Positions 6,103 through 44,623 of a DNA stretch of 64,000 nt are shown here, one piece after another. The stretch covers positions 32,001 through 96,000 of IMG/VR virus record IMGVR_UViG_3300025127_006147; one strand, 5' to 3'. A program made the position numbers and the translations under genes. The notes beneath the pieces were generated by a model. It saw only the letters and a program-made list of their open reading frames with translations, searched no databases and was not told the DNA's origin. The stretch's first letter is position 1. Each line of letters begins with the position of its first letter. This DNA is from a virus.

Positions 6103-9100
6103 ATGGCAACAGACGGAAAAGTTTTTGTATCCCCAGGGGTATACACGTCAGAGAAAGATTTAAGTTTCGTAGCACAAAGTGTGGGAGTAACAACACTTGG
6201 TTTAGCTGGTGAAACTCTTCAGGGTCCTGCTTTTGAACCTATTTTCATAAGTTCATATGGAGAATTCCAAACCTATTTCGGTTCATTAAACCCAGAAAAG
6301 TTTACGGAAACACAAATCCCTAAATACGAATTATCATATATAGCAAAAGCATATTTACAACAATCTAATCAGTTATTTGTGACTAGAGTATTAGGTTATT
6401 CTGGATATGACGCTGGACCTTCTTGGTCAATAACAACAATAGGTAACCCTGATTGTGAAACTATTAGAACTCAGTGTGCTGACACTACAAGTACAGTATA
6501 TAGTGCTTCTACATGTAACACTGGAACGGCTTTTGAGTCAACTAGTGGTTCTACTGCTGTGGTAAATAGTGGTTCTGTTGGGTTATACTTTACTGGAGGG
6601 ACTGACGTTTGGACTGATTCATCCACAACTGTTAAACCTATTGATTCTTTACCTTGGCCTATTTCTGAAAAAATAAATGAAACTTTAACAAAAACAGATG
6701 GTAGTAGTACAACTATTTCTGCCGAGTTAGATAGTATGTTATCTACATATTACTCTAGTTTATCACACATAGCAGTATGTGCAACTGGAGGTACCCCATG
6801 TTTCTTACCTATGACAGGAGGAACTAGTGTAGAAAAAGCTTTTGGTTGTAACTATGATGGAGATACGGTTTCAGGAAATACATTATATGAAGGAACATAT
6901 TTAGAAAATGCAGGAACACCAGCATCTTCAGGATACACTTACCAGTCTAAATTTAGTGGTATAACAGAAACACAAGTTTTAGGTTCTTCTTGTAACCCTA
7001 AACCTTCAGTATTCTGTAATGACATTAACGACCCTTGGTTATACGGATTCTTTGACCTAGTTCCTGGAACAGACCAGTATACTGGTTTCTCAATGAGTAT
7101 CGGTATCAATACTAATGATGTTTTAGATATTAGTACATCCGCTCAAACAACATTATATTCTGGAGATTCTGCTTTAAGATTCTCTTACACATTATATACA
7201 GGAGAAACTTTCTGTAACTACAACGATTTAGTAGTCGCAACTTTCCGTTCAAGAGGTGTAAGTACACAAAATTCAGGTGGACCTGTTTATCAAGTAACTG
7301 GTGGAACAGATGTTACAATGGTTTGTACGGGAGACACTTTCTCCAAAGTAAATACTGACCCATTTGCCACTTTTGGTATGGATGTTACAGATAAAGACGG
7401 TGATTCATTTAGATTTGAAACTTCTATGTCTCCATCATCTAAAGACTTTGTTAAACGAGTATTTGGGGTGGCACCGTTTGATAAACAAATGGAACAAGTT
7501 CCAATCTTTGTAGAGGAAGCTTATCCTAACATGTTAACATACGCTTATAAGAAGGGTTACATTAAAGGATTAAACTGTAGTCTACTAGATTTACCTTCAT
7601 TTAGAGATTCTAATAATACTGGAACTATTGGTTTCTACCAAGAACAATGGCAAACCCCAGTAACACCTTATGTTGTTTCTGAACTAAGAGGTACCAAAGT
7701 ATATAAATTATTTAGATTTATATCTATATGTGATGGTAACGCAGCTAACACACAAGTTAAAATATCTATTGTTAACATTTCATTTGAAAGAAATGAATTC
7801 GATGTGTTAGTTAGAAGTTTCTATGACACAGACGCTTCACCAGTTGTATTGGAAAGATATACAAGATGTAGTATGAATCCTAATTTGAACTCTTTTGTTG
7901 GGGTTAAAATTGGTACCGCTAATGGTGAATATGAATTGAAGAGTAGATACATTATGGTAGACTTAGACCCAGAACAAGAGACTGACACTAACCGTCATGA
8001 TGCTGTTCCTTGTGGATTCGAAGGTTATGTGACTAGAAATTACTTAGGAGAACAAAGTCCTACATTATACTATAAAACAAAATATAATAAACCAGGTGAT
8101 ATAATCTGGAACCCACCTTTCGCTGTAAGTTCAACTGTGGATAACTCAGTGATAAGTGCGGGAGATAAAATTAGAAGAGTTTATTTAGGTATTTCTGATA
8201 CTGCAGCTTCAGCTTATGACGATGACTTCTTCCAATATAAAGGAAAACAAGCACCTACAGATAAATGTAATGATTTAGATGGTACAGACTGGAATTGTTT
8301 AACTCAAGGATTCCATATGGATAGTGGAGCGACTTGTGTAAATACTTTAGGTGAGTTATGTGTAACTACACTTTGTAAAAATTGTGGTACTGGAACAACA
8401 ACTGAAGACCAGTTCGCTGTTGGTGTAGCACCGTTTAGAAGTGAACCAACTAATTCACAGGACCCATACTACACATTACAGTCTAGAAAATTCACATTAG
8501 CACCGTATGGTGGTTTTGATGGATGGGACATTTATAGAAAATCAAGAAGTAACGGAGATAGTTATGTTAGAGGTAAATCAGGGTTCTTAAACGGAGCTTG
8601 TACTTCAACTACATTCCCTAACGCGTCTGGTGATGGTTCATTTAAACTATTATCAAGCACTCCTTGGGGTGAATCAGGATTCTTCGCAACAACTGACTAT
8701 TACGCTTATTTCTTCGGTATTAGAACATTTAGAAACCCAGAAGCGGTTAACATTAACGTATTAGCAACACCAGGTATTGACTATGTAAACAATAGTAACC
8801 TTGTAGAGGAAACAATTGACATGGTAGAAACTGAAAGAGCTGATTCACTGTATGTTACTACAACACCTGACTACAACTTGTTTGTACCAGGAGCTACGGT
8901 AGCGGCAAACATAATCCAACCTACTGAAGCGGTAGATAACTTAGATTTAACAGCAATCGATTCTAACTACACCGCTACTTACTACCCATGGGTACAGTAC
9001 AACGACCAAGAGAACAATACAAGAGTATGGTTACCACCTACTTATGATGTAATGAGAAACATTGCTTTAACAGATAATATCTCATTCCCTTGGTTCGCGT

Positions 9101-9582
9101 CCGCTGGTTACACTAGAGGTATTGTAAACGCGGTTAAAGCTAGAAAGAAACTTACTCTTGATGAAAGAGATACGTTATACGCTGGTAGAATTAACCCAAT
9201 CGCAACTTACTCAGATGTTGGTACTATTATCTGGGGTAACAAGACACTACAAAGTAGACAATCTGCATTAGACAGAATCAACGTTAGAAGATTGTTACTA
9301 CAGGCTAGAAAATTAATTTCGGCAGTAGCAGTTAAATTGTTATTCGAACAAAATGACGAACAAGTAAGAAACGAATTCTTAGACTTAGTTAACCCAATCT
9401 TAGACTCTATTAGAAGAGAGAGAGGTTTAACAGACTTTAGAGTTGTTCTTTCTGACGACCCACAATTGATTGACCAAAATACATTAGAAGGTAAGATTTA
9501 CATAAAACCAACTAGGTCTCTAGAATTTATCGATATCGAATTCTTAATTACACCTACTGGAGCATCATTTGAAAATGTATAA
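6103..9582 (+). CDS. Contractile tail sheath protein (gp18-like), enlarged
   Basis: VFVSPGVYTSEKDLS N-terminus; C-terminal PWFASAGYTRG, INPIAT, TIIWGNKTLQ, ALDRINVRRLL, LLFEQND, YIKPTRSLEFIDIEF. Confidence 0.95.
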   Translation: MATDGKVFVSPGVYTSEKDLSFVAQSVGVTTLGLAGETLQGPAFEPIFISSYGEFQTYFGSLNPEKFTETQIPKYELSYIAKAYLQQSNQLFVTRVLGYSGYDAGPSWSITTIGNPDCETIRTQCADTTSTVYSASTCNTGTAFESTSGSTAVVNSGSVGLYFTGGTDVWTDSSTTVKPIDSLPWPISEKINETLTKTDGSSTTISAELDSMLSTYYSSLSHIAVCATGGTPCFLPMTGGTSVEKAFGCNYDGDTVSGNTLYEGTYLENAGTPASSGYTYQSKFSGITETQVLGSSCNPKPSVFCNDINDPWLYGFFDLVPGTDQYTGFSMSIGINTNDVLDISTSAQTTLYSGDSALRFSYTLYTGETFCNYNDLVVATFRSRGVSTQNSGGPVYQVTGGTDVTMVCTGDTFSKVNTDPFATFGMDVTDKDGDSFRFETSMSPSSKDFVKRVFGVAPFDKQMEQVPIFVEEAYPNMLTYAYKKGYIKGLNCSLLDLPSFRDSNNTGTIGFYQEQWQTPVTPYVVSELRGTKVYKLFRFISICDGNAANTQVKISIVNISFERNEFDVLVRSFYDTDASPVVLERYTRCSMNPNLNSFVGVKIGTANGEYELKSRYIMVDLDPEQETDTNRHDAVPCGFEGYVTRNYLGEQSPTLYYKTKYNKPGDIIWNPPFAVSSTVDNSVISAGDKIRRVYLGISDTAASAYDDDFFQYKGKQAPTDKCNDLDGTDWNCLTQGFHMDSGATCVNTLGELCVTTLCKNCGTGTTTEDQFAVGVAPFRSEPTNSQDPYYTLQSRKFTLAPYGGFDGWDIYRKSRSNGDSYVRGKSGFLNGACTSTTFPNASGDGSFKLLSSTPWGESGFFATTDYYAYFFGIRTFRNPEAVNINVLATPGIDYVNNSNLVEETIDMVETERADSLYVTTTPDYNLFVPGATVAANIIQPTEAVDNLDLTAIDSNYTATYYPWVQYNDQENNTRVWLPPTYDVMRNIALTDNISFPWFASAGYTRGIVNAVKARKKLTLDERDTLYAGRINPIATYSDVGTIIWGNKTLQSRQSALDRINVRRLLLQARKLISAVAVKLLFEQNDEQVRNEFLDLVNPILDSIRRERGLTDFRVVLSDDPQLIDQNTLEGKIYIKPTRSLEFIDIEFLITPTGASFENV

Positions 9583-9608: not shown

Positions 9609-11558
9609 ATGAAACTTAATTATAAAAAACAAAAATTAGTAGAAAGTTTAGGTTTTAACGTAAATTTCAAAAACCATTATGGTAATAAACCACAAAACGT
9701 TAAAGTAACACCAGACCAGTTCAAAAGATTAATGGAGTCTTACTTAGTATATGAGGAAGAAATACACAAGGAAGAGGAGGATTTAGAGTTAGCAGAATTC
9801 TCTGATTCATTCCAAGACGAACTTGACCAAGACATATTAGATGAAATGGATATGGAAAAAGAAACCAAAGAAGGGTATGGTAAAAAACATATGGACGAAA
9901 TGAACTTTGGTGATGACGGTGGTTTGAATTTACCTTCAGATGTAGATATGGATACTGAAAACGACAATAACCCGATTGATTTAGATGAATATGGTTATCA
10001 GTCTATTGACCATTCTGATAGAGACGAGTTCGATGGTAGAAAATCTAGAGTTGTTGGGGTATATTCAGACATTAACAAACAACGTTATGGGATGAATGAA
10101 GATTCTGAAGGAGAGGAAACATATCACTACGATGAAGATTTACACCATGACAGAGATGAATTACATCATTTAGAACGTGAAAGAAGTCACGCTCATGGTG
10201 GACATAAGTCCGACCTAGACCAACATATCGCAGCTCTAATTGATTCAATGAAGTATGACGATAAAAGAGGTGTGGGTAAAGATGATATGTACAGAAGAGA
10301 ACCAGGAACACACTTTTACCATGAAGGAAACGGTTTAGCGGAATCTGTTGACAAAACTTTTAAAATGATTAGAGAATCTATTAGAAGAGAAAGACCAAAA
10401 GGTTTAAGAATGAGTAACTATAGTAGAAAAACTTTAAATGAACAATTTGTTGGTTATACTGAAATGGGTGAACAATTCTATGGTGGTAGAGGTAACTACA
10501 ATAATCCTGGAGTAAATGCCGCTAAGGGTATTGAAGAGTTAGTTAAGAACATTAAAAAAGCTTATAACTTTATTAAAGATTCAAGAACTAGAAAACAAAT
10601 TGAAAACACCTTAGTTAAGTTACAAAACTTTATGGCTATCACAGCTGACGCAGTTATGGCAGGTAAACAACAAAGAGCACCTAGAAGAAATGACCAATTA
10701 ACTAGACCATTACCTTATCCTGAATTAGACGAACCAGAAGATTTAGAGGATATTGATGATGAGTTAGATTTAGATTCACTTAATGAGTCCCAAAAACGTA
10801 GTTTGGTTAGAGAAGCTAAAAGAGAGTTGAGAAGAAGAGCTTTAGTTGAAGAATTTTATTTACTTAACGAACAGGACGGAAAAGATAAAATTAAACAGTT
10901 AAAAGACGCTTTAAAAAGAGAAAGACAAGCTAAAAGAGATTTAAACAAACTAGGAAGAAAAGAACAAAGAGAAGAAAGAAAAAAAGCTAGAGAACAAAGA
11001 AAAGAACTCAAAAAATTCGAACAACTATGTTCTAAATTTCCAGACGCTCCAGAATGTTCTGATAAAGATGAATTCGTAAAAGATGTTGAACAAGAAATTA
11101 CAAAGGTAGAAGTTGCAACAAAAGATGCGGAAAAAGATTTCCAAAAACCCCCATCTGGGATACCAGATAAAAAACCTGGTGATTCGGTTAGTGGAAAAGA
11201 AACATCAAAGTTATGTCAACTAAAAGGAGACAAAACCTATGAGTATAAAGTAGAAAATGATGAGTGGTACAGTAGAAAAAGAGGTACAACTAAATGGAAC
11301 TCATTAGCTGGAGATAAATTTACTTTAGCAAGAGCAAGGTTAGATAAAGGTTGCCCAACGTTTAGAAAAACTAAAGAAGAAATGCCAGATGACGCGGTTA
11401 GTTCACAGGAAGATAAAGTGAGTTCAGCTACACAAACAAATGACCCAGATTCTTGGAAATCAAATATTCCAGGAAATGACCCAAAAAAGGACGCTGAAGC
11501 AAGACAAAGAGCCAGAGAATTTGCAGCTATGGGGTACCAAGGTTATTCAGGTAATTAA
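9609..11558 (+). CDS. Acidic 649-aa protein with many (L/I)xE sites; candidate internal head protein
   Basis: Low-complexity D/E-rich sequence with repeated LVES, LMES, LAES, IRES, LNEQ, LNES motifs; directly follows the sheath gene. Confidence 0.5.
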   Translation: MKLNYKKQKLVESLGFNVNFKNHYGNKPQNVKVTPDQFKRLMESYLVYEEEIHKEEEDLELAEFSDSFQDELDQDILDEMDMEKETKEGYGKKHMDEMNFGDDGGLNLPSDVDMDTENDNNPIDLDEYGYQSIDHSDRDEFDGRKSRVVGVYSDINKQRYGMNEDSEGEETYHYDEDLHHDRDELHHLERERSHAHGGHKSDLDQHIAALIDSMKYDDKRGVGKDDMYRREPGTHFYHEGNGLAESVDKTFKMIRESIRRERPKGLRMSNYSRKTLNEQFVGYTEMGEQFYGGRGNYNNPGVNAAKGIEELVKNIKKAYNFIKDSRTRKQIENTLVKLQNFMAITADAVMAGKQQRAPRRNDQLTRPLPYPELDEPEDLEDIDDELDLDSLNESQKRSLVREAKRELRRRALVEEFYLLNEQDGKDKIKQLKDALKRERQAKRDLNKLGRKEQREERKKAREQRKELKKFEQLCSKFPDAPECSDKDEFVKDVEQEITKVEVATKDAEKDFQKPPSGIPDKKPGDSVSGKETSKLCQLKGDKTYEYKVENDEWYSRKRGTTKWNSLAGDKFTLARARLDKGCPTFRKTKEEMPDDAVSSQEDKVSSATQTNDPDSWKSNIPGNDPKKDAEARQRAREFAAMGYQGYSGN

Positions 11559-12736: not shown

Positions 12737-12768
12737 CAAATATAAGAGCTTTATTTTAAAATACCAAA
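12737..12768 (-). promoter_or_regulatory. Bacteroidota sigma70-type promoter
   Basis: Minus strand TTTG-N20-TATATTTG. Confidence 0.7.
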
Positions 12769-12788
12769 TTAAATTTATCTTTTTTTTG

Positions 12789-12819
12789 TTTGTTTACTAA
12801 ATATTTTTTCTTATATTTG
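12789..12819 (+). promoter_or_regulatory. Bacteroidota sigma70-type promoter
   Basis: TTTG(12789)-N19-TATATTTG(12812), 23 nt upstream of the HAD ATG. Confidence 0.7.
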
Positions 12820-12842
12820 TATCGAACTTTAAAACATAATAA

Positions 12843-13283
12843 ATGAAATTAGCACTTTTTGACTTTGATAATACATTATTTAAAACCCCTTATGACGAAA
12901 GTCCAAGTTATATGGATAAACCAGAAAGTTTATCAATACGTAAATGGAAATTCGAACCAATACTTGAGACTATAAAAAAGTTTAAAGAATGTAAAAAAGA
13001 AAAAAATACGAAAGTTATTTTACTTACAAATAGAATTGACAATGTTTACTCAGAATTAAAGACTTTATTAGAGGAATACGGTTTGGTATTTGACGACTAC
13101 AAAATGATTATTGGTGTGGATGGTGATAGGTCTAAAGGTAAACGAGTAAAGGACTTGATATTAAATAATAACGTGGGTTCTGTTGAGTATTGGGAAGATA
13201 AAGATAAACATATAGAAGATGTCAAAAACACCATGGACTTTTTTCCAGAGATAGAATTAAAAATAAATAAAGTAGTTATTTAA
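12843..13283 (+). CDS. HAD-superfamily phosphatase (Swiss-army-knife RNA-repair-like)
   Basis: Motif I LFDFDNTLFKTP, motif II LLTNR, motif IV YWEDKDKH. Confidence 0.8.
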   Translation: MKLALFDFDNTLFKTPYDESPSYMDKPESLSIRKWKFEPILETIKKFKECKKEKNTKVILLTNRIDNVYSELKTLLEEYGLVFDDYKMIIGVDGDRSKGKRVKDLILNNNVGSVEYWEDKDKHIEDVKNTMDFFPEIELKINKVVI

Positions 13284-13929
13284 TTCTATTAATACTACCA
13301 GTAGCCCTTTCTCCTTTAGGTAAATCTCTAGTATTATCTACAATCCAATAATTATCTACCATAGGAATTAAATCTTTAACAACTCTTCTAACTTTATCGT
13401 GATAATCAATAACCATGTCTCTAGGTAAACTTCGGTCTCTTTCTTGATTTCTCTCCAAAGCTTTATCCAATTCTGTAACAACATGAACTATAGTTACAGC
13501 ATAACCATTGTCTTTAGCTAAATTAATTACATCATTCATAACTTGTCTTTGACCACCACCCGCATCATATACAATATTAGGTGTGTGATTTCTCTCCACC
13601 TCTAAAAAGTTCTTTAAAAATCTAATAGTTAAATTTCTAGGGTCTGATGTGGTATATGACATATCTAATATCTTTTTATAACCCTCGTCAGTAGAAATAT
13701 TTTCTTTCCAAGAATCACCCCAGATTTTTTTAGCTAACGCTACTCTATAGTTGTCTACATTAAATTGTTTGTAATCAGGTAAGTCTATAAAGTTTTGTGT
13801 AACGAAACTTTTTCCCGCACCTGGGCCACCAGCAATAATTACAAAATTACCCTGAGGTCTATCAAATCCAACTACCCTGGACTCAACAAACATTAATCTT
13901 TTGATTTTCTCAATTTCTTTTAGTAGCAT
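13276..13929 (-). CDS. P-loop kinase, zeta-toxin/AAA_33-like
   Basis: Walker A AGGPGAGKS, NVD, GYAVTIVHV and lid ALERNQERDR. Confidence 0.8.
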   Translation of the reverse strand: MLLKEIEKIKRLMFVESRVVGFDRPQGNFVIIAGGPGAGKSFVTQNFIDLPDYKQFNVDNYRVALAKKIWGDSWKENISTDEGYKKILDMSYTTSDPRNLTIRFLKNFLEVERNHTPNIVYDAGGGQRQVMNDVINLAKDNGYAVTIVHVVTELDKALERNQERDRSLPRDMVIDYHDKVRRVVKDLIPMVDNYWIVDNTRDLPKGERATGSINRIK

Positions 13930-13936
13930 ATCTTTA

Positions 13937-13952
13937 TATAAATATATTTATT
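13937..13952. promoter_or_regulatory. Back-to-back divergent TATTTAT(A/T) motifs
   Basis: tataaata (13937-13944; TATTTATA on minus, facing the kinase) then TATTTATT (13945-13952, facing deoC) in a 44-bp intergenic gap. Confidence 0.6.
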
Positions 13953-13973
13953 AATGATAATAATACAATAATC

Positions 13974-14780
13974 ATGAACACAAAATTACTTATCGAAAGA
14001 ATGATGAGATTAATGGAAATAGAAGACATTAAGTCTGATATTTCAAATTATCTCGATTCAACGTATTTAAAAACATCAGAACAAGCTGGTATCTCAGACG
14101 AAGAAACTAAAAACAACGTTATGTCATTATTAGATGACGCTTTAAACCATAATATGAAATTAGTTATGGTAAGACCAGAACAGGTAGAATTAGCCAGAGA
14201 AGTAATAGACCAAAGAAACGGTAATACTTTAGTTGGTACAGTAATTGATTTCCCGTTTGGAAATGGTAGTACTTCAGATAAAGTTAATGAAGCTAAAAGA
14301 GCCATTAATATGGGTGTAGATGAAATTGATTATGTAACGGACTATAAATCTTTTAAGGCAGGAAATATAGAAAAATTTATTAGAGACATTGTAGATGGAA
14401 CCAGGGTTGGTATGGATGCTGGTAAAGTTGTTAAGTGGATTATAGAAAGTGAAGCTCTTACAAACCAAGAAATACAAGACATAACTCAGCTTATCAGAGA
14501 TGTGGTAGTTAATGAGTTTGGTGAGATACCAGCATCATCTGTTTTTGTTAAAACATCTACGGGATTTTTTAACGGTGAAAAACCAAATCCTGAAAAAACT
14601 AAAGAAGAAGACGTAATAATTATGTCTCAAAATGCTGGACCACTGAGGGTTAAAGCTTCTGGTGGTATTTATACTATAGACGATTTAAATAAAATGGTTA
14701 AAGCTGGAGCTAGTAGAATCGGAACTTCAGCTGCCAAAGAAATAATACGTGGTGATAAAGACGTTATAAAAGATTATTAA
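13974..14780 (+). CDS. deoC: Deoxyribose-phosphate aldolase
   Basis: VIDFPFG, DEIDYV, KWIIES, Schiff-base Lys in FVKTSTGF, second Lys in VKASGGI, RIGTS. Confidence 0.93.
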   Translation: MNTKLLIERMMRLMEIEDIKSDISNYLDSTYLKTSEQAGISDEETKNNVMSLLDDALNHNMKLVMVRPEQVELAREVIDQRNGNTLVGTVIDFPFGNGSTSDKVNEAKRAINMGVDEIDYVTDYKSFKAGNIEKFIRDIVDGTRVGMDAGKVVKWIIESEALTNQEIQDITQLIRDVVVNEFGEIPASSVFVKTSTGFFNGEKPNPEKTKEEDVIIMSQNAGPLRVKASGGIYTIDDLNKMVKAGASRIGTSAAKEIIRGDKDVIKDY

Positions 14781-14781
14781 A

Positions 14782-15663
14782 ATGAGTAAACGAATTAGAC
14801 AAATAATTAGAGAACAAGCTGGATTAAATTTATCCGTACAGGATGAAATCGGTAATTTGAACCCTAATGAAAGACAACAAATTAAGGGAGCGTTAATAGA
14901 TTTATTAAATAATAATCCAGAACAGGAAATGTCAGAAATAGAGTATGGTGGTATTCCTGAGTTAAAAGCTACTGGTTTAGTAGGTAAAATAGGTAAGTGG
15001 TTTAAAAGATTCTTAACAGATAAAGCTTCAGACTATTTAATCGACGCTAGTGCACAAGAAATGGAGGACACCATAAAATTAATTGACGCGTTAGACCCTA
15101 ATGACTTGACTGGTATATTCACTCCTAGAGCAATGTATTTAGGTGGTGGTATAGATTTTGCTGATGACGCGTTGTCATGGAGAACTCAGGTTGAGAACTT
15201 TTTTGGTCCTGGTCACGTAGTTAAAGGAGATAAATTATTTGAGTTAATTACCACGGGTAACATGAGTTTTAAAGGTCTTGATACTCCAGCAATACTTAAT
15301 CCATTAAGAGCAGAAACAGTAAGAGATGAAGACGATGAATTTCAACAAATGTTTAAACAGTGGAAAGCTGGTGAACTAGACGGACAGACATTCCAAAAAT
15401 TTAGAGAAAAGATTAGAGAACAAATAGTTGTACAAGATTTATATATGTTAAAAGTGTGTGACACTAACCTAATTAATTTTGATGGTACTGCTGGAGCTGG
15501 AACATTCGGAGAAGCTCAGTTTAGTGCTTTGAAAAACTCACAAATCTTTGTTTGGTTAACTAACGGAATGAAAATATCTAACATCTCTCCATGGATGATG
15601 CCCTCAATAACCAAAATTCTTCAAGAAGACGAACTTTGGCCTTTCTTGTCTAACTTCAAATAA
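14782..15663 (+). CDS. Nucleoside 2-deoxyribosyltransferase / DNPH1(RCL)-like nucleotide N-glycosidase with N-terminal extension
   Basis: MYLGGGID...SWR, ILNP, QDLYMLKVCD and GAGTFGEA carry the Tyr/Asp/Glu pattern of the NDT family. Confidence 0.7.
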   Translation: MSKRIRQIIREQAGLNLSVQDEIGNLNPNERQQIKGALIDLLNNNPEQEMSEIEYGGIPELKATGLVGKIGKWFKRFLTDKASDYLIDASAQEMEDTIKLIDALDPNDLTGIFTPRAMYLGGGIDFADDALSWRTQVENFFGPGHVVKGDKLFELITTGNMSFKGLDTPAILNPLRAETVRDEDDEFQQMFKQWKAGELDGQTFQKFREKIREQIVVQDLYMLKVCDTNLINFDGTAGAGTFGEAQFSALKNSQIFVWLTNGMKISNISPWMMPSITKILQEDELWPFLSNFK

Positions 15664-16332
15664 ATGAATCTTGTCAGAAGAATATTAAGAGAATACACTG
15701 AACAACCATTAAATGAACTAGCTAGAACTAATCGTTTAATAGTTCTTGACGTTGACGATACATTACTTAAACCTTCTGGTGTATACATCTATAGAAATTT
15801 ACCTTCAGACCCCCAAGAAATTGCATTAACACCTTACGAATACGGTTTAGAAAACGTAACCCCAGAAACGAAACAATATTACGACTATAGGGACTTTTTA
15901 GACCCAGTAAAAACACAACAATCAATAGAACAAGCTGAACCAATAGTTACTAACTTATCAGTAATGGACGATTATTTAAAATTAGGTCATCAGATAGCTA
16001 TATTAACAGCAAGGTCTAATGAACAGGTTGTTTTTGACGGATTAAAACAATGGTTAATGTATAAAGACAGAAAAGGTAACCTAATACCAATAGGGGACCG
16101 TCTAAATAGAGAAAACGTATTTGCGGTAAACGACACCAACAGAATGAGTACACTAGAGTCGGAGACTGATTATGAAAAAAAGGCGGAGATAATGGAAAAA
16201 TTAGTTAAAGTTTATGACGAAATAGTTTTCATAGATGATGATATGAAAAATATTAAACAAATGAAGATGTTAAAAAGAGATTTACCGGAAGAGCTTGCTA
16301 AGAAATTATTTGTAATGCATGCTAAAGAATAA
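15664..16332 (+). CDS. HAD-superfamily phosphatase / nucleotidase
   Basis: LIVLDVDDTLL, ILTARS, Lys in YEKKAE, IVFIDDDMKNI. Confidence 0.85.
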   Translation: MNLVRRILREYTEQPLNELARTNRLIVLDVDDTLLKPSGVYIYRNLPSDPQEIALTPYEYGLENVTPETKQYYDYRDFLDPVKTQQSIEQAEPIVTNLSVMDDYLKLGHQIAILTARSNEQVVFDGLKQWLMYKDRKGNLIPIGDRLNRENVFAVNDTNRMSTLESETDYEKKAEIMEKLVKVYDEIVFIDDDMKNIKQMKMLKRDLPEELAKKLFVMHAKE

Positions 16333-16478: not shown

Positions 16479-16967
16479 ATGGCTGACTTATTAATGAAAA
16501 TGCCCATACCGTATGAACCTAAAAAGAAAAATAGGTTTATCTTAAGATTCCCTTCGTCGTTGGGTATTAATGAGTGGTATGTGGAAAGTACTTCTAGACC
16601 TGCTGTTAATATTAACCCAGTAGAAATCCCTTTCTTAAACACATCTACTTATGTAGCTGGTAGATTTACATGGAACACAATCAGTGTGACATTTAGAGAC
16701 CCTATAGGACCATCAGCGTCACAAGCACTTATGGAGTGGGTAAGATTACACGCAGAATCTGTAACAGGTAGAATGGGTTACGCTGCAGGATATAAAAAGG
16801 ACATCGATTTAGAGATGTTAGACCCTACAGGTGTTGTAGTTGAAAAGTGGATAATGCAAGGAACATTCTTAACAGACGTTAACTTCGATAGTTTAGGATA
16901 TAGTGATGATGCAATTGCAACTATTTCAGCAACCTTGAGACCAGATAGATGTATATTAGTATACTAA
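16479..16967 (+). CDS. Tail tube protein (gp19-like)
   Basis: YEPKKKNRFILRF, VAGRFTWNTISVTFRD, YKKDIDLEMLDPTG, FDSLGYSDD. Confidence 0.9.
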   Translation: MADLLMKMPIPYEPKKKNRFILRFPSSLGINEWYVESTSRPAVNINPVEIPFLNTSTYVAGRFTWNTISVTFRDPIGPSASQALMEWVRLHAESVTGRMGYAAGYKKDIDLEMLDPTGVVVEKWIMQGTFLTDVNFDSLGYSDDAIATISATLRPDRCILVY

Positions 16968-16987: not shown

Positions 16988-17016
16988 AAAACCCGTACTT
17001 AGTGTATGGGTTTTTT
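16988..17016. terminator. Intrinsic terminator after tail tube (possibly bidirectional)
   Basis: AAAACCCGTAC-TTAGT-GTATGGGTTTTTT. Confidence 0.75.
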
Positions 17017-17628
17017 ATTTAAAGGAGCTTTGTTTTTTATTTTAGGGTAAGGTTTTTCTTCCCATAAACAATTTAGTGTTTTATCAAAAACCATTAAGTA
17101 CCTGTGTTTACGTTCACGAGGTCGCCATTCACCTTTTTTACCTTTAACTGGACCTCTCTGATGTTTAACAAAAGAACCATCCCCTAACTCAAACCAAAAG
17201 TCTTTTTTAGAGTCAGTTAAACCGTAATATTTAAAATTTGTGGCTTGATATATAAAACCAGTGTGTAGAGAAGAATCTGCATAAGATAGTATGGACCTAA
17301 CCGTTGTTTCTTTTTTTAATTTTTTTATACATCTAGAAACAAACCAAGACAATATGTTCTTTTCTTTAATTTGAGGGTCTAAACATAAACGACCTAATTC
17401 ATATACACCGTTTTGTTCTGTTCTACTTAAACCAAAACAGCCTTTTAATGTTTCGGGTACCGATGGAGAGTGAAACACACAAACACCAACTAAAACAGTA
17501 TCCTTATATAAACCAAAATTAAAACCAGTTCTAAAGCCTTTACTTTTTTTATTTAAATAATGATATTGTGAAAGTATGGACTTACATAAATCTTTACTTA
17601 TTATTTGTATGTTATAGGTTTTATTCAT
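16999..17628 (-). CDS. Mom-like GNAT-fold DNA adenine-modification enzyme
   Basis: QYHYL, GVCVF, YELGRLCL, ILSYADSSLHTGFIYQATNFKYYG, the Mom-family pattern. Confidence 0.75.
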   Translation of the reverse strand: MNKTYNIQIISKDLCKSILSQYHYLNKKSKGFRTGFNFGLYKDTVLVGVCVFHSPSVPETLKGCFGLSRTEQNGVYELGRLCLDPQIKEKNILSWFVSRCIKKLKKETTVRSILSYADSSLHTGFIYQATNFKYYGLTDSKKDFWFELGDGSFVKHQRGPVKGKKGEWRPRERKHRYLMVFDKTLNCLWEEKPYPKIKNKAPLNKKPIH

Positions 17629-29300: not shown

Positions 29301-32300
29301 CGGTAAAACTCTGAACCAAGTTTCAGCAGTGCATCCTTTACCCAGTGCGTGGATTTTAAAGTATGGTGCTATTTGGCATAGATATAAAGAATTTACAAAT
29401 AACGGTTCTGACTTTCTTTCCTCTATTTGGGACAATTTTGATGCCAACACTTATTTTAATAATAGTAATGGTTTGGGTTATACCTATGATTTAAATGTCG
29501 GGCCCAATAATACATTAACAAGTTTTGGAGGACAATGGTCCCCCACCCCAACATCCGACCAGTTAAATCTTGGATTTTATCCTGAGTTAAACAACTATAT
29601 TTATTATTTTGTAACTGGTGAACTTTTATATGATGGGTTAAATATAAGTGGTTTCCCAATAACGGACAATCAAGTTAATCAGTTAATTTTACAGGAAGCG
29701 TTATTTCTTAAAAACGCGGAAGAATTAACAATAACTTCTATACCTACTGACCCAGTACAAACCAAAGCTAGTTTGTGGTTCAATTATTATGATTTAACCA
29801 GAGAGGGTTATCTTAGTGGATATACTACTGCACAGTACTTACTTTTCCCATGTGAAGGGGGTATGAAAAAATCACAACTAGAATTTGAAGTTAATACACC
29901 ATATAATTTAATTAATAATAGTAATGTAACTAATGGTGCCGCAAGACTAGTTTGGTCTTTATCGAATTACGGTTATTTTGAACACAATCAAAATACTTTC
30001 CCACAACCAGACCAATACCTTAAAGTGATTGATAGTACACAAGAAGAACAACTGTCTTTTAATATTAGTAATAATGAAAACTATTCTTCCATTGAAGAAT
30101 TATTTGATATTTTTACACCCCAGATACTCGATACATTTGAGGAGTATTTTCTAAATTTTACAGAAGCTTTTAATCCAGACCCACCAGTATATTACGATAG
30201 TGAAGACATTAGAAGTTTGAATTTCCAAAAAACCATTAGAGAATTTTTGAAAATAGACCAAGACAAAGTTAACGATTCTCAAAGTAATACACAACTAAGT
30301 TATAATTTAGGTCAAACACAGTTAAATAAAATTAACTCTACTTTAAGAGAATTTTTGTCACACCAAACAGCTTTTAATTTCTACAACCCAAAAGATATAG
30401 ATATCTTAGTATTTAAAAGTATGGCTCCCCAATCAGGAGCTACACCTTACATAACTTTTGGTCAATATAAAGGTAATTTACCCCCAGACATTTCTTTAAA
30501 TGATTCCACAACCCTATATGTAAACGAGTGGAAAGAATTAAGACAACAAGTAGGTTTTTATAGTGACTCTTTATCTTCCGCTTATACATTAAATTTAATT
30601 TATAACGATAGTGGAAACTATGTAACAGAATTTTTCCGTGAGTTTAATATCGACTTTAATGTCCCCAACATTAAAAACCTGAGAAAAATTATTAGAATGT
30701 ATGTAACTGCTAGAATTGAAGCGGGAGCGACACAAAATATAGACAATATAGAATTTTTACAAAGAATTAAAACGGAATCTATTGAAGCGTGGGAATTTGC
30801 ACAATTTGATTTTATAAATCAATTGTTTATACAACTAAAAAAAGTGTTACCACAAACAGCGGAAACAGAAATCGAAGAATTTACAAACAATTCTACTTTT
30901 GAAACTGATGAAGCTAAATTAGAACAATATCAGGTATTTAAGACTCTAAACGATAAGTGGGTAAGTGGGGAAGAATTCAGTAATAAGTATTTGTTTGAGG
31001 ATTTCTTATTTTATGATGTAGCTAACAGAGATGTGGGTGATAAAGCTATAATTACTACTGATGCTATTGCCAATTTTGATAGTATTAATAACGCTAATAA
31101 AAGTTTATTAACCATTATAGGAGCTATTTTACAAGGTAACTTCTTTAACTTTATGGGTATGCCTAGTTATATTAATTTTTACGGTATGACATCACAAGGT
31201 AACACACCCATCCCTAAATTAAGTACTCAAGAAGAAGCAGACGCTATTTTTGGTACACATTTAGAGGTAGATACTCTAGACTCAGGACCTAAATTTTTAT
31301 GTCAATACGTAGGACCACCGTCAACACAATTGGGTGGTGAATTAGCTAAACAAAGTAAATATGAAAATGATTCCTTCCTTTTAGGTAGGACAGCTCAAAA
31401 TCCATTACTTTCAACCGACTATGACCCACAAAAAAATAATAAGGTAGTTGCTTTTGCGGTAGATTTTGGAATACAGAGTCAAGGGGTATTTAAAGGAATT
31501 AGTTTAGACCAGAGTGAATTTAAAAACACTTCTGAATCTTTTGCTGTTACAGAATCCATGGCACAATCAGCGAATGATAAAAGTATTTTAACACAAGGAT
31601 TAAGTTTATTTAATATCTATAAAACTAGGTCGTATACATGTAAAATAGAAGCTATGGGTAATGTGTGTATACAACCAACAATGTACTTTTCACTCAGACA
31701 CATTCCAATGTTTAGTGGACCTTACTTAATATTAGACGTTGAACATACAATACAACCTAATACTATGACTACTAGTTTTACTGGAGTTAGAGTACCATTC
31801 CATAAAATGCCTGAAATAAGTCAACTAGTAGCTAAAGTTAATCAAACGTTTTTAAACAAACTAAGAAAAAAAGTAAAAGAAGAAAAAGCAATTCAAAGAC
31901 AAGGAGGATTTGAACCAGAGAGCACTACAGAAAGTAATTCAGTTAGAGAAGGTAATTATAATTTTAGGGGTAGAGATGATGGTAAGTTAGATTATATAAT
32001 TATTCATGTTACTGCTGGACTGAAATATGGTAGTAACCCTGTAGAAAAGATTAATAAACAACATTTAAATAGGGGGTTTGCTGGAATTGGTTACCATTAC
32101 TTAATAGGTAGGGGGGCTGAAGGAGATGACAATAGTCCACAAGGAACATTATATGGTGCTAGACCCCAAAATAAAGTAGGTGCACATACTAGAGGACATA
32201 ATAGCAGGTCTGTAAGTGTTAGTATGATAGCTAATTGTGCTAAAATGGGTGTGTATGATAAATCTGAAGGAGGAGACCATCCTACCTCAACCCAAAAAGA

Positions 32301-40110: not shown

Positions 40111-41883
40111 ATGAAAAATTACGCAGAACATTTGGGCTGGGAGGTAGACGTGGACTTCCCAAGTTGGGCAAACACACACGTTTATATACAAACTATTTCT
40201 AATGGTTATTTATTACCAGGAGAGAAACCAAAAGACGCATACTGGAGGGTATGTACTACTGTAGCAAAAAGATTAGGTAAACCACAGTTAGCTACTAAAT
40301 TTTTTGATTATATATGGAAAGGATGGTTATGTTTAGCCAGTCCAGTATTAAGTAATACTGGTACTGAAAGAGGATTACCTATTAGTTGTTTCGGTATTGA
40401 TGTAGCTGATTCAATACAGGACATTGGGGCAAAAAATTTGGAAATGATGTTACTAGCTAAACACGGTGGTGGTGTAGGAATTGGTATAAATCAAATTAGA
40501 CCAGCGGGTTCAACAATTACTGATAACGGTACTAGTGATGGTGTTGTACCATTTTGTAAAATTTACGATTCCACGATTTTAGCAACTAATCAAGGTGCAG
40601 TCAGAAGAGGTGCTGCATCAGTTAATCTTAACATTGAACATAATGATTTTATGGATTGGTTAGAAATTAGAGAACCTAAAGGTGATGTTAATAGACAATC
40701 ACTTAATCTACACCAATGTGCCGTTGTTGGAGATAAATTCATGAGAAAATTAGAAGCTGGTGACAAAGAATCTAGAAAAAAATGGGCATCTTTACTTAAA
40801 AAACGTAGACAAACTGGAGAACCATATATTATGTATAGGGGTAATGTTAATAAAACTAATCCAGAATCTTACAAGAAAAATGGTCTAAAAGTTTATATGA
40901 CAAATATTTGTTCTGAAATTGTTTTACACACTGATGAAAATCACTCATTTGTTTGTTGTTTAAGTTCCCTTAATCTTGCAAGATATGATGAATGGAAAGA
41001 TACTGATTTAATTTATACCGCTACGTGGTTCTTAGACGGTGTTCTTGAAGAATTTTTACAGAAAGCAAAATATAGAAAAGGGTTTGAAAATGCTGTAAGA
41101 AGTGCTGAAAAAGGAAGAGCTTTAGGTTTGGGTGTTTTAGGATGGCATACTTTCTTACAACAAAGAGGAATACCTTTTGAAGGACTTCCAGCACAATTCG
41201 AAACACGTAGAATTTTTGGTCAAATTAAAACTGAATCAGAACAAGCTTCTAGAGATTTAGCTACCGAATATGGTGAACCATTATGGTGTGTTGGTAGTGG
41301 ATTTAGAAATAGTCACTTAAGAGCTGTAGCTCCTACAGTATCGAATAGTAAGTTAGCAGGTGGAGTAAGTTCAGGAATAGAACCCTTACCAGCAAATGTA
41401 TATACAGACCAAAGTGCTAAAGGAACTTTTATTAGAAAAAATAAAGAGTTAGAAAAGGTATTTAGAAAAATAGGTATTAACAACAAAGATACTTGGGATA
41501 AAATATTGGCAGATGGTGGTAGTGTACAAGACATTAAAGAACTAGATAATTGGGGATATGTAAATGGTAAGGTTACACATGTTGAAGAAAAAGAAAATTC
41601 ACATACAGATTTTGTGCCAGTGAAAGAAGTCTTTAAAACCTTTAAGGAAGTGAACCAACTAGAATTGGTTAGACAAGCTGGAATTAGACAACAGTATATA
41701 GACCAAGCTGTATCCCTAAACCTAGCTTTTCCTAAAGAAGCTACACCAAAGTGGTTAAACCAAGTTCACTTAGAAGCGTGGAAAATGGGTGTTAAAACAT
41801 TATATTATGTTAGAACTGAAAGTGTCCTTAGAGGTGATATAGCAGCAAGAGCTATGGAAGAGTGTGTTAGTTGTGAAGGTTAG
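40111..41883 (+). CDS. nrdA: Class I ribonucleotide reductase alpha subunit (no ATP cone)
   Basis: LASPVLSN, ISCF, GGGVG, TNICSEI, APTVSNS, TLYYVR, C-terminal CVSCEG. Confidence 0.95.
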   Translation: MKNYAEHLGWEVDVDFPSWANTHVYIQTISNGYLLPGEKPKDAYWRVCTTVAKRLGKPQLATKFFDYIWKGWLCLASPVLSNTGTERGLPISCFGIDVADSIQDIGAKNLEMMLLAKHGGGVGIGINQIRPAGSTITDNGTSDGVVPFCKIYDSTILATNQGAVRRGAASVNLNIEHNDFMDWLEIREPKGDVNRQSLNLHQCAVVGDKFMRKLEAGDKESRKKWASLLKKRRQTGEPYIMYRGNVNKTNPESYKKNGLKVYMTNICSEIVLHTDENHSFVCCLSSLNLARYDEWKDTDLIYTATWFLDGVLEEFLQKAKYRKGFENAVRSAEKGRALGLGVLGWHTFLQQRGIPFEGLPAQFETRRIFGQIKTESEQASRDLATEYGEPLWCVGSGFRNSHLRAVAPTVSNSKLAGGVSSGIEPLPANVYTDQSAKGTFIRKNKELEKVFRKIGINNKDTWDKILADGGSVQDIKELDNWGYVNGKVTHVEEKENSHTDFVPVKEVFKTFKEVNQLELVRQAGIRQQYIDQAVSLNLAFPKEATPKWLNQVHLEAWKMGVKTLYYVRTESVLRGDIAARAMEECVSCEG

Positions 41884-42769: not shown

Positions 42770-44623
42770 ATGGCAAATAATAAAATATCTTACTCAGAAA
42801 GAGATTTTGTTGGTTTAAGGGGAGAGTTATTAAACTATGTTCAAGACCAATATCCAGACTTAATTCAAAACGCGAACGACGCTTCTTTATTTTCAGTTTT
42901 TTTAGATTTAAACGCGGCGGTCGCTGATAACTTACATTATCACATTGACCGTAGTTTACAAGAAACTGTTTTACAATACGCTAATCAAAGGTCTTCTTTA
43001 TTTAATATTGCTAGGACTTATGGATTGAAAATTCCTGGAACTAGACCTTCAGTATCAGTTTGTGATTTTAGTATTACTGTTCCTGTTTTACAGACTTCTG
43101 GGGGAGGAGATAAAGAAGATTTTAGGTATTTGGGCACATTAAGACGAGGTTCTCAAATAAAAGGAGCCGGACAAGTGTTTGAAAATATTCACGATATAGA
43201 TTTTTCAGTACCATTTGACTCTACTGGATTTCCAAACAGAACTAAAACTCCTAATTTTAATAATAATGGAAACATTGTAAGTTATACAATTACAAAAAGA
43301 GAGGTGGTAATAAATGGTATAACCAAAGTATTCAAGAGAGTTATAACTAGTACTGATGTGTTACCGTTTTTAAAAATATATTTACCAGAAAAAAATGTTT
43401 TAGGGGTGACAGGATTAATACAAAAAGATGGTACAAATATACAAGCGGTACCTAAAGCTACCGAGTTTTTAACTTCTCAAAATAAATGGTATGAAGTAGA
43501 TGCGTTAGCACAAGACAAAGTATTCATTGTCGATTCTAGTAAACCTTCTGATTTACCTGGTGTTAAAGTTGGTAAATGGGAAACCGCAAATCAAAGGTTT
43601 ATAACTGAGTATACACCAGAAGGTTTTTTCTATCTAACATTAGGTGGTGGTACTAGTAGTTCACAAAACTCGTTAGATGATTTTACAACACAAGGGTTTA
43701 CGATGGACTTAAGTAGATATATGAACAATTTTTCTTTAGGAAGTTCACCTAGAGCTAATACTACTTTATTTATTCAGTACAGAGTGGGTGGTGGACAATC
43801 TACTAATATAGGTCCTAACACCTTAAATAGTTTTGGTACCATAGACTTTGTTTTAAATGGACCAAACGTCAACATAAATAGGTCAGTTAATGAATCTTTA
43901 AGTGTTAATAATGTTACCGCTGCTATTGGAGGTTCTAATCAACCTACAGTAGAGGAAATTAGAAATTATATTGGTTTTAATTTTTCATCACAAAAAAGAG
44001 CTGTGACATTATCAGACTACAAAGTTTTAATTGAAACAATGCCTTCAGTTTTTGGTGCACCAGCAAAATGTGGGGTTATGGAAGTTGAAAATAAAATTAT
44101 GGTTAAGTTACTTTCATATAATACTGATGGTTCACTTACCTCTAATGTTAGTACTACTTTAATGGATAACATTAGTGAGTATTTGTCTGATTTTAGAATG
44201 TTAAATGATTATTTGACTATTGAACCCGCAGAAGTTATAGACTTGTCTTTAGAAATAGACTTATTGATTGACCCGTCATTTAATAGTGGAGCAATAATTA
44301 CAAATGTAATTAATACTACTAATGATTTCTTTGCTCCTAGAAATAGAGAAATGGGTACTGATATTTTTGTTGGTGAACTTATAAAAAATCTTGCAGCACA
44401 AGATGGGGTTAAAAACTTAATCGATTTAAGAATTTTTAATAAAGTAGGTGGAGAATATTCCAGTAATGAGGTTTCACAAAGATACTTGGATGATGAAACC
44501 AGACAGATAGAATTAATAGATGGTGTAATTTTTGCTCAACCAACCCAGTCATTCCAAGTTAAATATCCTACTAAAGATGTAATAGTTAGAGTAAAGTCTA
44601 CAAATCAAACAACTGTCTCTTAA
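42770..44623 (+). CDS. Baseplate wedge protein gp6 / baseplate J-like
   Basis: YSERDFVGLRGEL, IARTYGLK, YRVGGGQSTN, AIGGSNQPTVEEIR, QKRAVTLSDY. Confidence 0.88.
   Translation: MANNKISYSERDFVGLRGELLNYVQDQYPDLIQNANDASLFSVFLDLNAAVADNLHYHIDRSLQETVLQYANQRSSLFNIARTYGLKIPGTRPSVSVCDFSITVPVLQTSGGGDKEDFRYLGTLRRGSQIKGAGQVFENIHDIDFSVPFDSTGFPNRTKTPNFNNNGNIVSYTITKREVVINGITKVFKRVITSTDVLPFLKIYLPEKNVLGVTGLIQKDGTNIQAVPKATEFLTSQNKWYEVDALAQDKVFIVDSSKPSDLPGVKVGKWETANQRFITEYTPEGFFYLTLGGGTSSSQNSLDDFTTQGFTMDLSRYMNNFSLGSSPRANTTLFIQYRVGGGQSTNIGPNTLNSFGTIDFVLNGPNVNINRSVNESLSVNNVTAAIGGSNQPTVEEIRNYIGFNFSSQKRAVTLSDYKVLIETMPSVFGAPAKCGVMEVENKIMVKLLSYNTDGSLTSNVSTTLMDNISEYLSDFRMLNDYLTIEPAEVIDLSLEIDLLIDPSFNSGAIITNVINTTNDFFAPRNREMGTDIFVGELIKNLAAQDGVKNLIDLRIFNKVGGEYSSNEVSQRYLDDETRQIELIDGVIFAQPTQSFQVKYPTKDVIVRVKSTNQTTVS

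Follow-up and report, generated by a model that had tools for sequence, protein, structure and literature searches.

A conserved DeoC–X gene pair in the tail region of a marine jumbo phage: a candidate, possibly capsid-borne route for the destruction of deoxynucleoside monophosphates

Between the tail sheath and tail tube genes of an uncultured marine phage, a gene for the deoxyribose-phosphate aldolase DeoC (DERA) stands directly upstream of a gene for a protein of the NDT/DNPH1 fold, which we call X. Both genes lie in a stretch of 64,000 nucleotides (nt; positions 32,001 to 96,000 of IMG/VR virus record IMGVR_UViG_3300025127_006147); this whole stretch is referred to as the window, and positions are those of the window unless a locus is named. 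Our tentative reading, held with a little less than even confidence, is that DeoC and X form the core of a late-expressed, probably capsid-loaded enzyme island, and that this core would destroy 2'-deoxynucleoside 5'-monophosphates (dNMPs). The protein-coding genes that concern us here are the following (aa, amino acids):

13974-14780, plus strand: DeoC, deoxyribose-phosphate aldolase, 268 aa, with an N-terminal leader of ~17-18 aa that ends in L-x-E
14782-15663, plus strand: X, NDT/DNPH1-fold protein, 293 aa; leader at residues 1-11, helical N-terminal region at ~17-113, fold domain at 114-293
15664-16332, plus strand: HAD2, putative phosphatase of the HAD superfamily, 222 aa, with leader; its start codon abuts the stop codon of X
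13276-13929, minus strand: P-loop kinase, 217 aa, with leader; divergent from DeoC
12843-13283, plus strand: HAD1, putative short HAD phosphatase, 146 aa, without leader; converges on the kinase

The window is part of a 194-kb record with an estimated completeness of 61%, and the source is therefore a jumbo phage with a genome of ~300 kb. The phage group is frequent in seawater and marine metagenomes, and runs from 13 studies contain this stretch.

DeoC and X are linked across related phages

DeoC is located directly upstream of X in all 23 close related loci, which represent two genomic contexts. The complete order HAD1, kinase, DeoC, X, HAD2 is kept between sheath and tube in ~14 loci, and nine loci, on contigs of up to ~300 kb, contain the DeoC-X pair only, elsewhere in the genome. 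A distant lineage with ~27% identity to X (locus L043) has the reversed order, that is an X-like gene followed by DeoC, and the two genes are still adjacent. In the relative G001 (record of 297,623 bp, 93% complete), HAD1 and the kinase are retained as an overlapping convergent pair but reside ~10 kb from DeoC-X; HAD2, still a neighbour of the tube gene, is ~130 kb from DeoC-X. Because the adjacency of DeoC and X is kept in all 23 loci while the kinase and the HADs scatter, gene order marks DeoC-X as the functional unit and the kinase and HADs as conserved companions that are not obligate neighbours. The initial annotation of this DNA had treated kinase, DeoC, the NDT-like protein and a HAD protein as a four-gene cassette serving one pathway, and had suggested a survey of gene neighbourhoods. 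Such a survey upholds the link between DeoC and X; the cassette as a single pathway is not supported as stated, given the distances of the kinase, HAD1 and HAD2 from the pair in G001.

No cultured phage with X was found in the phage collection, the sole match being the 735-kb metagenomic phage LR756501. The genomes of bona fide cultured phages are all but devoid of DeoC as well, and most DeoC matches in records labelled as phage look like host contigs.

Several other genes occur close to the pair in relatives. A staphylococcal-nuclease-like gene without leader is present within ~1 kb of DeoC-X in four loci (L001:9995-10384, L002:6561-6962, L015 and L019), in which the pair is located outside the tail region; no such gene was found in the window's record. 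L002 also carries a DNA ligase gene and a pyrimidine-dimer glycosylase-like gene near the pair. In many relatives, a gene for an Fe/Mn superoxide dismutase is inserted between kinase and DeoC (for instance L003:6076-6729 and L034:6212-6871, both on the minus strand), which is absent from the window's record.

DeoC has the features of an orthodox deoxyribose-phosphate aldolase

DeoC scores 138.4 bits against the equivalog model TIGR00126 (cut-off 117.3), and its best sequence matches in the PDB are all DERA (E 3e-23). Residues Lys193, Lys227, Asp119 and the C-terminal Tyr268, located by alignment to DERA 4xbs, are invariant across 16 homologues. With the roles known from E. coli DERA, Lys193 is the Schiff-base lysine, Lys227 the second lysine and Asp119 the catalytic aspartate, and the C-terminal Tyr belongs to the active site, too. 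Judged by its sequence, DeoC is an orthodox DERA, and the deoC call made in the initial annotation stands, with a TIGR00126 score above cut-off and the catalytic residues kept.

X is a predicted dNMP N-glycosidase

The X family comprises 54 representatives among 1.8 billion proteins and is conserved at 60-70% identity over the full length, on marine contigs of 100-300 kb. X yields no direct match to the curated NDT models PF05014 and PF15891, and a feature search of the atlas returned NDT leads that were all sub-threshold. The most distant relatives of X are short viral NDT-like proteins that score 30.5 bits against PF15891 (cut-off 30) and 25.8 bits against PF05014 (cut-off 28.8), and hhalign aligned residues 118-292 of X to these proteins with a probability of 99.6% (E 1e-23). 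When the AlphaFold (AF2) model of X (pLDDT 79.5) was compared with the PDB using Foldseek, all top-50 matches belonged to the NDT superfamily (probability ~1), with NDTs, DNPH1/Rcl, MilB/BcmB and YtoQ at the top. VIA comparison of model residues 114-293 with NDT, DNPH1, MilB and YtoQ gave Z scores of 10-12.6, the best match having Z 12.6 and a root-mean-square deviation of 2.9 Å over 133 residues.

Tyr119, Asp219 and Glu244 of X are at least 90% conserved in 49 sequences. In a profile alignment to the Chroococcidiopsis NDT (8qc0), Asp219 falls on D62 and Glu244 on E88, which are the residues mutated in PDB entries 8pqp and 8pqs; by the ranges of the structural alignments, residue 119 of the model coincides with Tyr7 in NDT and with Tyr24 in DNPH1. 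Gly238, the one pocket residue that was mapped, aligns with Asp82 of the Chroococcidiopsis enzyme, the Asp that binds the 5'-OH in NDTs. These lines of evidence are indirect but agree that residues 114-293 form a domain of the NDT/DNPH1/MilB type with a Tyr/Asp/Glu triad. Following the study of the phage enzyme DmtZ, the Tyr excludes ribo substrates, and a pocket for a 5'-phosphate is recognised by the lack of Asp or Asn at the position of the 5'-OH (PMC12884076). Because X combines Tyr119 with a Gly at the 5'-OH site, it reads as an enzyme for 2'-deoxynucleoside 5'-monophosphates by these criteria, and from fold, triad and pocket it looks like an N-glycosidase of such compounds. The DNPH1/NDT assignment of the initial annotation is thus carried by profile and fold evidence, albeit not by a direct Pfam match.

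X shares with DNPH1/Rcl and the CMP N-glycosidases MilB/BcmB the fold (Z 10-11 over ~120-130 residues), the Tyr/Asp/Glu triad and likewise small uncharged residues before the nucleophile, at the position expected for a 5'-phosphate. DNPH1 chemistry should yield the substrate of DeoC as its product. X is only 14-17% identical to these enzymes, and their hidden Markov models give no direct match. It further differs by a conserved additional N-terminal region of ~115 residues, by an insert of ~30 residues and by its protease-type leader, and its activity is a prediction. The proposal at the core of the initial annotation, DeoC working with NDT/DNPH1-type chemistry, gains support from the DERA identity, the triad of X and the strict adjacency of the two genes.

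Alternatively, X could act mainly as a deoxyribose-5-phosphate transferase that takes the sugar phosphate off a canonical dNMP and attaches it to an unusual base, giving a non-canonical dNMP for modified phage DNA, while DeoC mops up sugar phosphate that becomes hydrolysed. A precedent exists in the Z-genome phages, whose NDT-family DmtZ is a dAMP hydrolase and deoxyribose-5-phosphate transferase and does exactly so for 2-aminoadenine (PMC12884076); moreover, the NDT-like proteins of Ghobes and Archimedes are among the structural matches of X, and a Mom-like DNA modification gene is located nearby. X resembles DmtZ in being phage-encoded, in belonging to the NDT family, to which the Ghobes match adds, and in its predicted action on dNMPs, which would reshape the nucleotide pool. 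However, DmtZ is a protein of ~145-160 aa with a role in 2-aminoadenine DNA, and its gene is linked to dutZ and purZ0, whereas X is linked to DeoC and no PurZ was found. Searches of four or five related records, including the window's record and the 93%-complete G001, revealed no PurZ, ThyA-family or ThyX gene, and thereby no evident source of an unusual base; in the whole G001 record, no gene of the ThyA, ThyX or adenylosuccinate synthetase families was found, despite a phage ribonucleotide reductase. In addition, a transferase releases no free deoxyribose-5-phosphate, which would leave the strict linkage to DeoC unexplained. We therefore regard a role mainly as transferase as quite unlikely. 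As to a modified-base pathway in its own right, nothing points to one, since neither a thymidylate synthase nor PurZ was found.

X might also degrade a ribose-based immune signal or an NAD-derived molecule, as TIR- or SLOG-like proteins do, and would then be a counter-defence enzyme unrelated to deoxynucleotides. The NDT fold is related to those of TIR and SLOG proteins, VIA comparison gave Z 10.1 for a TIR-APAZ chain (8qlo), and TIR proteins appear in the list of viral structural matches. Yet the best matches of X are all NDT, DNPH1 or MilB, and the conserved Tyr119 together with the strict DeoC partnership points to 2'-deoxyribose-5-phosphate, making this explanation highly improbable.

Upstream of the fold domain, X has a conserved extra region of ~115 residues without detectable relatives. 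No credible paralogue of this region was found in the genome, in which the best BLAST match is a 617-aa protein encoded at 42770-44623 on the plus strand, with weak local similarity to X residues 58-112 (34% over 64 residues, E 0.004 within the genome). Residues 53-63 form an invariant short block that ends in I-P-E, ~60 residues in and behind a variable acidic segment. This block may be a second protease site, at which the entire N-terminal 60 residues would be removed. Residues 48-90, a conserved part of X that the model places with low confidence, are a candidate interface with DeoC.

A shared leader suggests capsid loading

The kinase, DeoC, X, HAD2 and a 649-aa protein encoded in the same interval have in common a basic, hydrophobic N-terminal stretch that ends in (I/L)-x-E. 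The leader is missing in HAD1, the tube protein and the baseplate hub. Within each family its Glu varies little or not at all (in DeoC, Glu18 is nearly invariant among the 16 homologues), and the remainder of the leader is variable; the kinase and X homologues of relatives are nearly identical to each other over their first dozen residues. The superoxide dismutase and two further proteins inserted between kinase and DeoC in relatives bear the same leader. Throughout the window's genome, the (I/L)-x-E pattern is enriched 3.4-fold at N-termini (p = 4e-4).

The relatives G001, G002 and G003 encode a prohead protease of the gp21 family (Peptidase_S77, 88-92 bits; phrog_207, E 1e-44) within a head module of T4-like order, that is portal, protease, scaffold and capsid protein, and the N-terminus of the capsid protein in relatives carries the same (I/L)-x-E motif. 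Furthermore, G002 has no separate kinase gene; the kinase makes up the C-terminal end of a 1787-aa open frame and follows there the junction that is also seen before free kinases. In phage T4, a leader of ~10 residues directs proteins into the prohead core, where gp21 removes it, and some of these proteins are co-injected with the DNA (PMC9958956). Because the shared leader, the gp21-type protease of relatives, the motif on the capsid protein and the G002 junction come together, loading into the capsid followed by proteolytic trimming appears, by analogy with T4, to be the most economical reading of the leader, and we consider it moderately probable. Capsid loading would change when and where DeoC, X, kinase and HAD2 act.

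The comparison with the T4 internal proteins and Alt extends to the presence of an (I/L)-x-E leader on unrelated proteins, to a gp21-family protease and T4-like head order in relatives, and to late expression among structural genes. The cargo differs: in T4 it consists of small basic proteins or an ADP-ribosyltransferase, whereas here the putative cargo would include DERA, an NDT-fold enzyme, a kinase, a phosphatase and superoxide dismutase.

The large G002 frame (L033:1840-7203) is polyprotein-like, with a zincin-like HExxH motif, acidic linkers and many (I/L)-x-E sites. Its N-terminal parts correspond to separate genes in the window's genome (at ~171.5-183.1 kb of G000), and the G001 counterpart is an open reading frame of 1689+ aa next to HAD1 and kinase.

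The same chemistry could operate without packaging. In that case, DeoC-X would be a cytoplasmic auxiliary metabolic pair made late. It would use dNMPs left over from host DNA breakdown, where surplus or unwanted, as a source of carbon and energy and release their bases for salvage, and the leader would serve, for example, as a translation start context or in complex assembly. The enzyme identities and the DeoC-X linkage fit such a role, and the distant DeoC-X pair of L043 lacks the leader, so that the pair works without it. The staphylococcal-nuclease-like gene beside the pair in L001, L002, L015 and L019 and the phage's own ribonucleotide reductase agree with it, too. What it leaves unexplained are near-identical leaders with an invariant Glu on unrelated enzymes, the motif on the capsid protein and the position of the kinase behind the same polyprotein junction. 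We rate a purely cytoplasmic role as unlikely.

The kinase and HAD proteins resemble the halves of a polynucleotide kinase-phosphatase

In Pfam, the kinase matches AAA_33 (41.6 bits) better than Zeta_toxin (29.5 bits; gathering threshold of PF06414 22.3), and its PHROG match is phrog_5268 (E 1e-17). A Foldseek search of the PDB with the kinase model placed six chains of the Clostridium thermocellum polynucleotide kinase at the top (E 3.5e-8, TM 0.70); T4 polynucleotide kinase (PNK) is also listed (TM 0.69), and PezT and zeta rank below the six polynucleotide kinase chains. The P-loop as well as Asp59 and Arg62, which form a D-x-x-R motif ~18 residues past the P-loop, are invariant in the family; in T4 Pnk, D-x-x-R is an acceptor motif, a role that it may have here, too. 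By its model, the protein looks closest in fold to polynucleotide kinases rather than to zeta toxins or nucleotide kinases. The initial annotation had called it zeta-like, which the Pfam score permits but the fold comparison does not favour.

HAD2 and HAD1 both match phrog_415 (E 1.8e-8 and 3.8e-8, respectively) and contain a DxDxT motif I (residues 28-32 and 7-11, respectively). HAD2 additionally reaches 22.6 bits for HAD-IIIC, which is below cut-off, and 26 bits for DUF2608, and HAD1 has weak matches to PNK3P and HAD_SAK_1. The DxDxT motif and the phrog_415 matches at E ~1e-8 weakly confirm the assignment of both proteins as HAD phosphatases, in line with the initial annotation. The family scores of kinase and HADs are weak and generic, the HADs matching families of the PNK-phosphatase type; together, the kinase and the HADs look like the two parts of a polynucleotide kinase-phosphatase. 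T4 Pnk and C. thermocellum Pnkp are the best structural matches of the kinase, and the overlapping convergent kinase-HAD1 pair is kept; unlike in these enzymes, kinase and phosphatase are separate genes here, and identity is ~18%. No RNA ligase partner of the kinase was identified.

This resemblance raises the question whether the island could serve to repair polynucleotides or heal their ends, with DNA or RNA as substrate in place of free nucleotides. Such a kit would consist of the PNK-like kinase, PNK-like 3'-phosphatases, a glycosylase-like X, and DeoC, whose Schiff-base lysine would remove deoxyribose-phosphate residues; it might enter together with the genome and mend damage suffered outside the cell. 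The structural matches of the kinase and the PNK-phosphatase families matched by the HADs speak for such a kit, as do the leader-bearing superoxide dismutase of the island in relatives and the DNA ligase and pyrimidine-dimer glycosylase-like genes near the pair in L002. On the other hand, DeoC scores as an orthodox DERA with a full small-molecule active site including the C-terminal Tyr, the family scores of HADs and kinase are weak and generic, and we know of no NDT-fold enzyme that acts on polymeric DNA. A repair kit is thus very unlikely in our view.

A model for dNMP destruction

According to the reading we favour, X would cleave the N-glycosidic bond of a 2'-deoxynucleoside 5'-monophosphate to yield the base and 2-deoxyribose-5-phosphate. 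DeoC would split the latter into glyceraldehyde-3-phosphate and acetaldehyde, and because the released sugar phosphate is split, the reaction would be pulled forward and the loss of the dNMP would become irreversible. DeoC, X, the kinase and HAD2 would belong to an island of late genes, which in relatives also takes in superoxide dismutase and further proteins. The leader-bearing proteins would probably enter the prohead, undergo trimming and reach the cell together with the DNA, in analogy to the T4 capsid-targeting sequence and gp21. Upon delivery they could remove dNMPs from the first moments of infection, like the pre-early Dmp of phage T5, or else they could act late in the cell. How the kinase and HADs relate to the DeoC-X pair is speculative: they may turn 3'-phosphorylated products of a nuclease into 5'-dNMPs that feed the pair, an idea suggested by the staphylococcal-nuclease-like gene beside DeoC-X in four loci. 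The phage encodes its own ribonucleotide reductase. Pool sanitisation, recycling and counter-defence, which the initial annotation had offered as purposes, are candidate functions of such a route.

A number of observations weigh against this model. X has no direct match in Pfam, NCBIfam or PDB sequences, its Foldseek E-values are weak (3e-3 and worse), and fold similarity is unable to separate a hydrolase from a transferase or to give the base specificity of X. The kinase-HAD1 pair and HAD2 are unlinked from DeoC-X in G001, a distant X homologue on a 20-kb contig has no DeoC within 5 kb, and in the 735-kb phage LR756501 DeoC is ~100 kb away from the X homologue. As regards packaging, the (I/L)-x-E motif is short and matches 2% of random internal windows, and a gp21-type protease was not found in the window's own 61%-complete record, on which the PF03420 and PF07068 profiles gave nothing useful either. 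Finally, we found no precedent for the packaging of enzymes of central metabolism such as DERA.

In its strongest form, which we consider doubtful, the model describes a ready-made kit of dNMP N-glycosidase, DERA, PNK-like kinase and phosphatase and, in relatives, superoxide dismutase that is ejected with the DNA, whereby host dNMPs and immune signals made from them would be irreversibly destroyed before the first phage gene is expressed. T5 Dmp offers a parallel: it is a pre-early deoxynucleoside-5'-monophosphatase that clears dNMPs and also blocks the dITP-based Kongming defence (bioRxiv 2024.12.20.629578). Common to both would be the removal of cellular dNMPs at the very start of infection. 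However, Dmp dephosphorylates dNMPs and is expressed from first-step-transfer DNA, whereas in our model glycosidic bond and sugar would be destroyed, and by virion proteins made beforehand. BLASTP detected no similarity of HAD1 or HAD2 to Dmp. If the kit is indeed ejected, it would be a protein-delivered counterpart of the pre-early Dmp strategy.

An NDT-family phage enzyme acting on dNMPs (DmtZ), T5 Dmp and the T4 internal proteins are already known. What these phages add is a strict coupling to DERA, a large conserved extension at the N-terminus of X and a leader shared with other enzymes. Reshaping of nucleotide pools by phages has been described for phosphatases, triphosphatases and, recently, DmtZ; destruction of deoxyribose coupled to DERA is not described in the literature searched, and a search for DeoC or DERA in combination with phage, jumbo phage or auxiliary metabolic genes retrieved no paper describing DeoC in phages. 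If the leaders direct entry into the capsid, the repertoire of ejected phage proteins would widen from inhibitors and polymerases to small-molecule metabolism. The model provides a testable idea of counter-defence at time zero, in which large phages pre-empt nucleotide-based defences at entry, and it has environmental relevance as the phage group is common in seawater.

Genomic context and transcription signals

The remaining features of the interval and its flanks are listed here:

6103-9582, plus strand: tail sheath (left flank), with Phage_sheath_1 and Phage_sheath_1C matches
9609-11558, plus strand: 649-aa protein with a leader of the same type; no family match
13935-13944, minus strand, and 13945-13954, plus strand: back-to-back pair of the late-promoter-like motif TATTTATWWA, facing the kinase and DeoC-X-HAD2, respectively
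16479-16967, plus strand: tail tube (right flank), phrog_4542, E 1e-29

The genes are tightly packed, with 1 bp between DeoC and X and none between X and HAD2. Kinase and DeoC diverge from a 44-bp spacer, and HAD1 overlaps the 3' end of the kinase gene by 8 bp. The interval between sheath and tube further contains the 649-aa protein gene, two minus-strand genes and HAD1. Searches with Pfam- and PHROG-type profiles gave no family match for the 649-aa protein, which by its leader is possibly another cargo protein of the island. The gene order and gaps, the divergent kinase, the location between sheath and tube and the back-to-back motif had all been reported in the initial annotation and agree with the coordinates given here.

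TATTTATWWA occurs 26 times versus 15.8 expected, a number reached in none of 100 shuffles, and it is found 20-45 nt upstream of the genes for sheath, tube and a number of further structural proteins. ATATTTAT precedes the DeoC start codon by 11-27 nt at 15 of 15 related loci, irrespective of the genomic context. A terminator scan detected no terminator-like hairpin between DeoC, X, HAD2 and tube; the first one 3' of the DeoC operon is located at 16988-17014, behind the tube gene. From the late-type promoter-like motif we infer that the kinase and the DeoC-X-HAD2 genes are expressed late. HAD1 is preceded, in place of the late motif, by TTTG...TAnnTTTG (within 12760-12842), which is typical of Bacteroidota promoters. 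The only DNA relatives of the tube gene are Flavobacterium phages. Because of this relationship and the Bacteroidota-type sequence at HAD1, the sequence data point to a Bacteroidota host.

Two further genes of the window deserve mention. A Mom-family DNA modification gene (16999-17628, minus strand; Pfam Mom 105 bits, phrog_1384) is placed antisense between the genes for tube and baseplate hub; L021 is the only related locus that has it. The large subunit of ribonucleotide reductase is encoded at 40111-41883 on the plus strand (PF02867, three segments of 93-105 bits), surrounded by genes otherwise read as structural.

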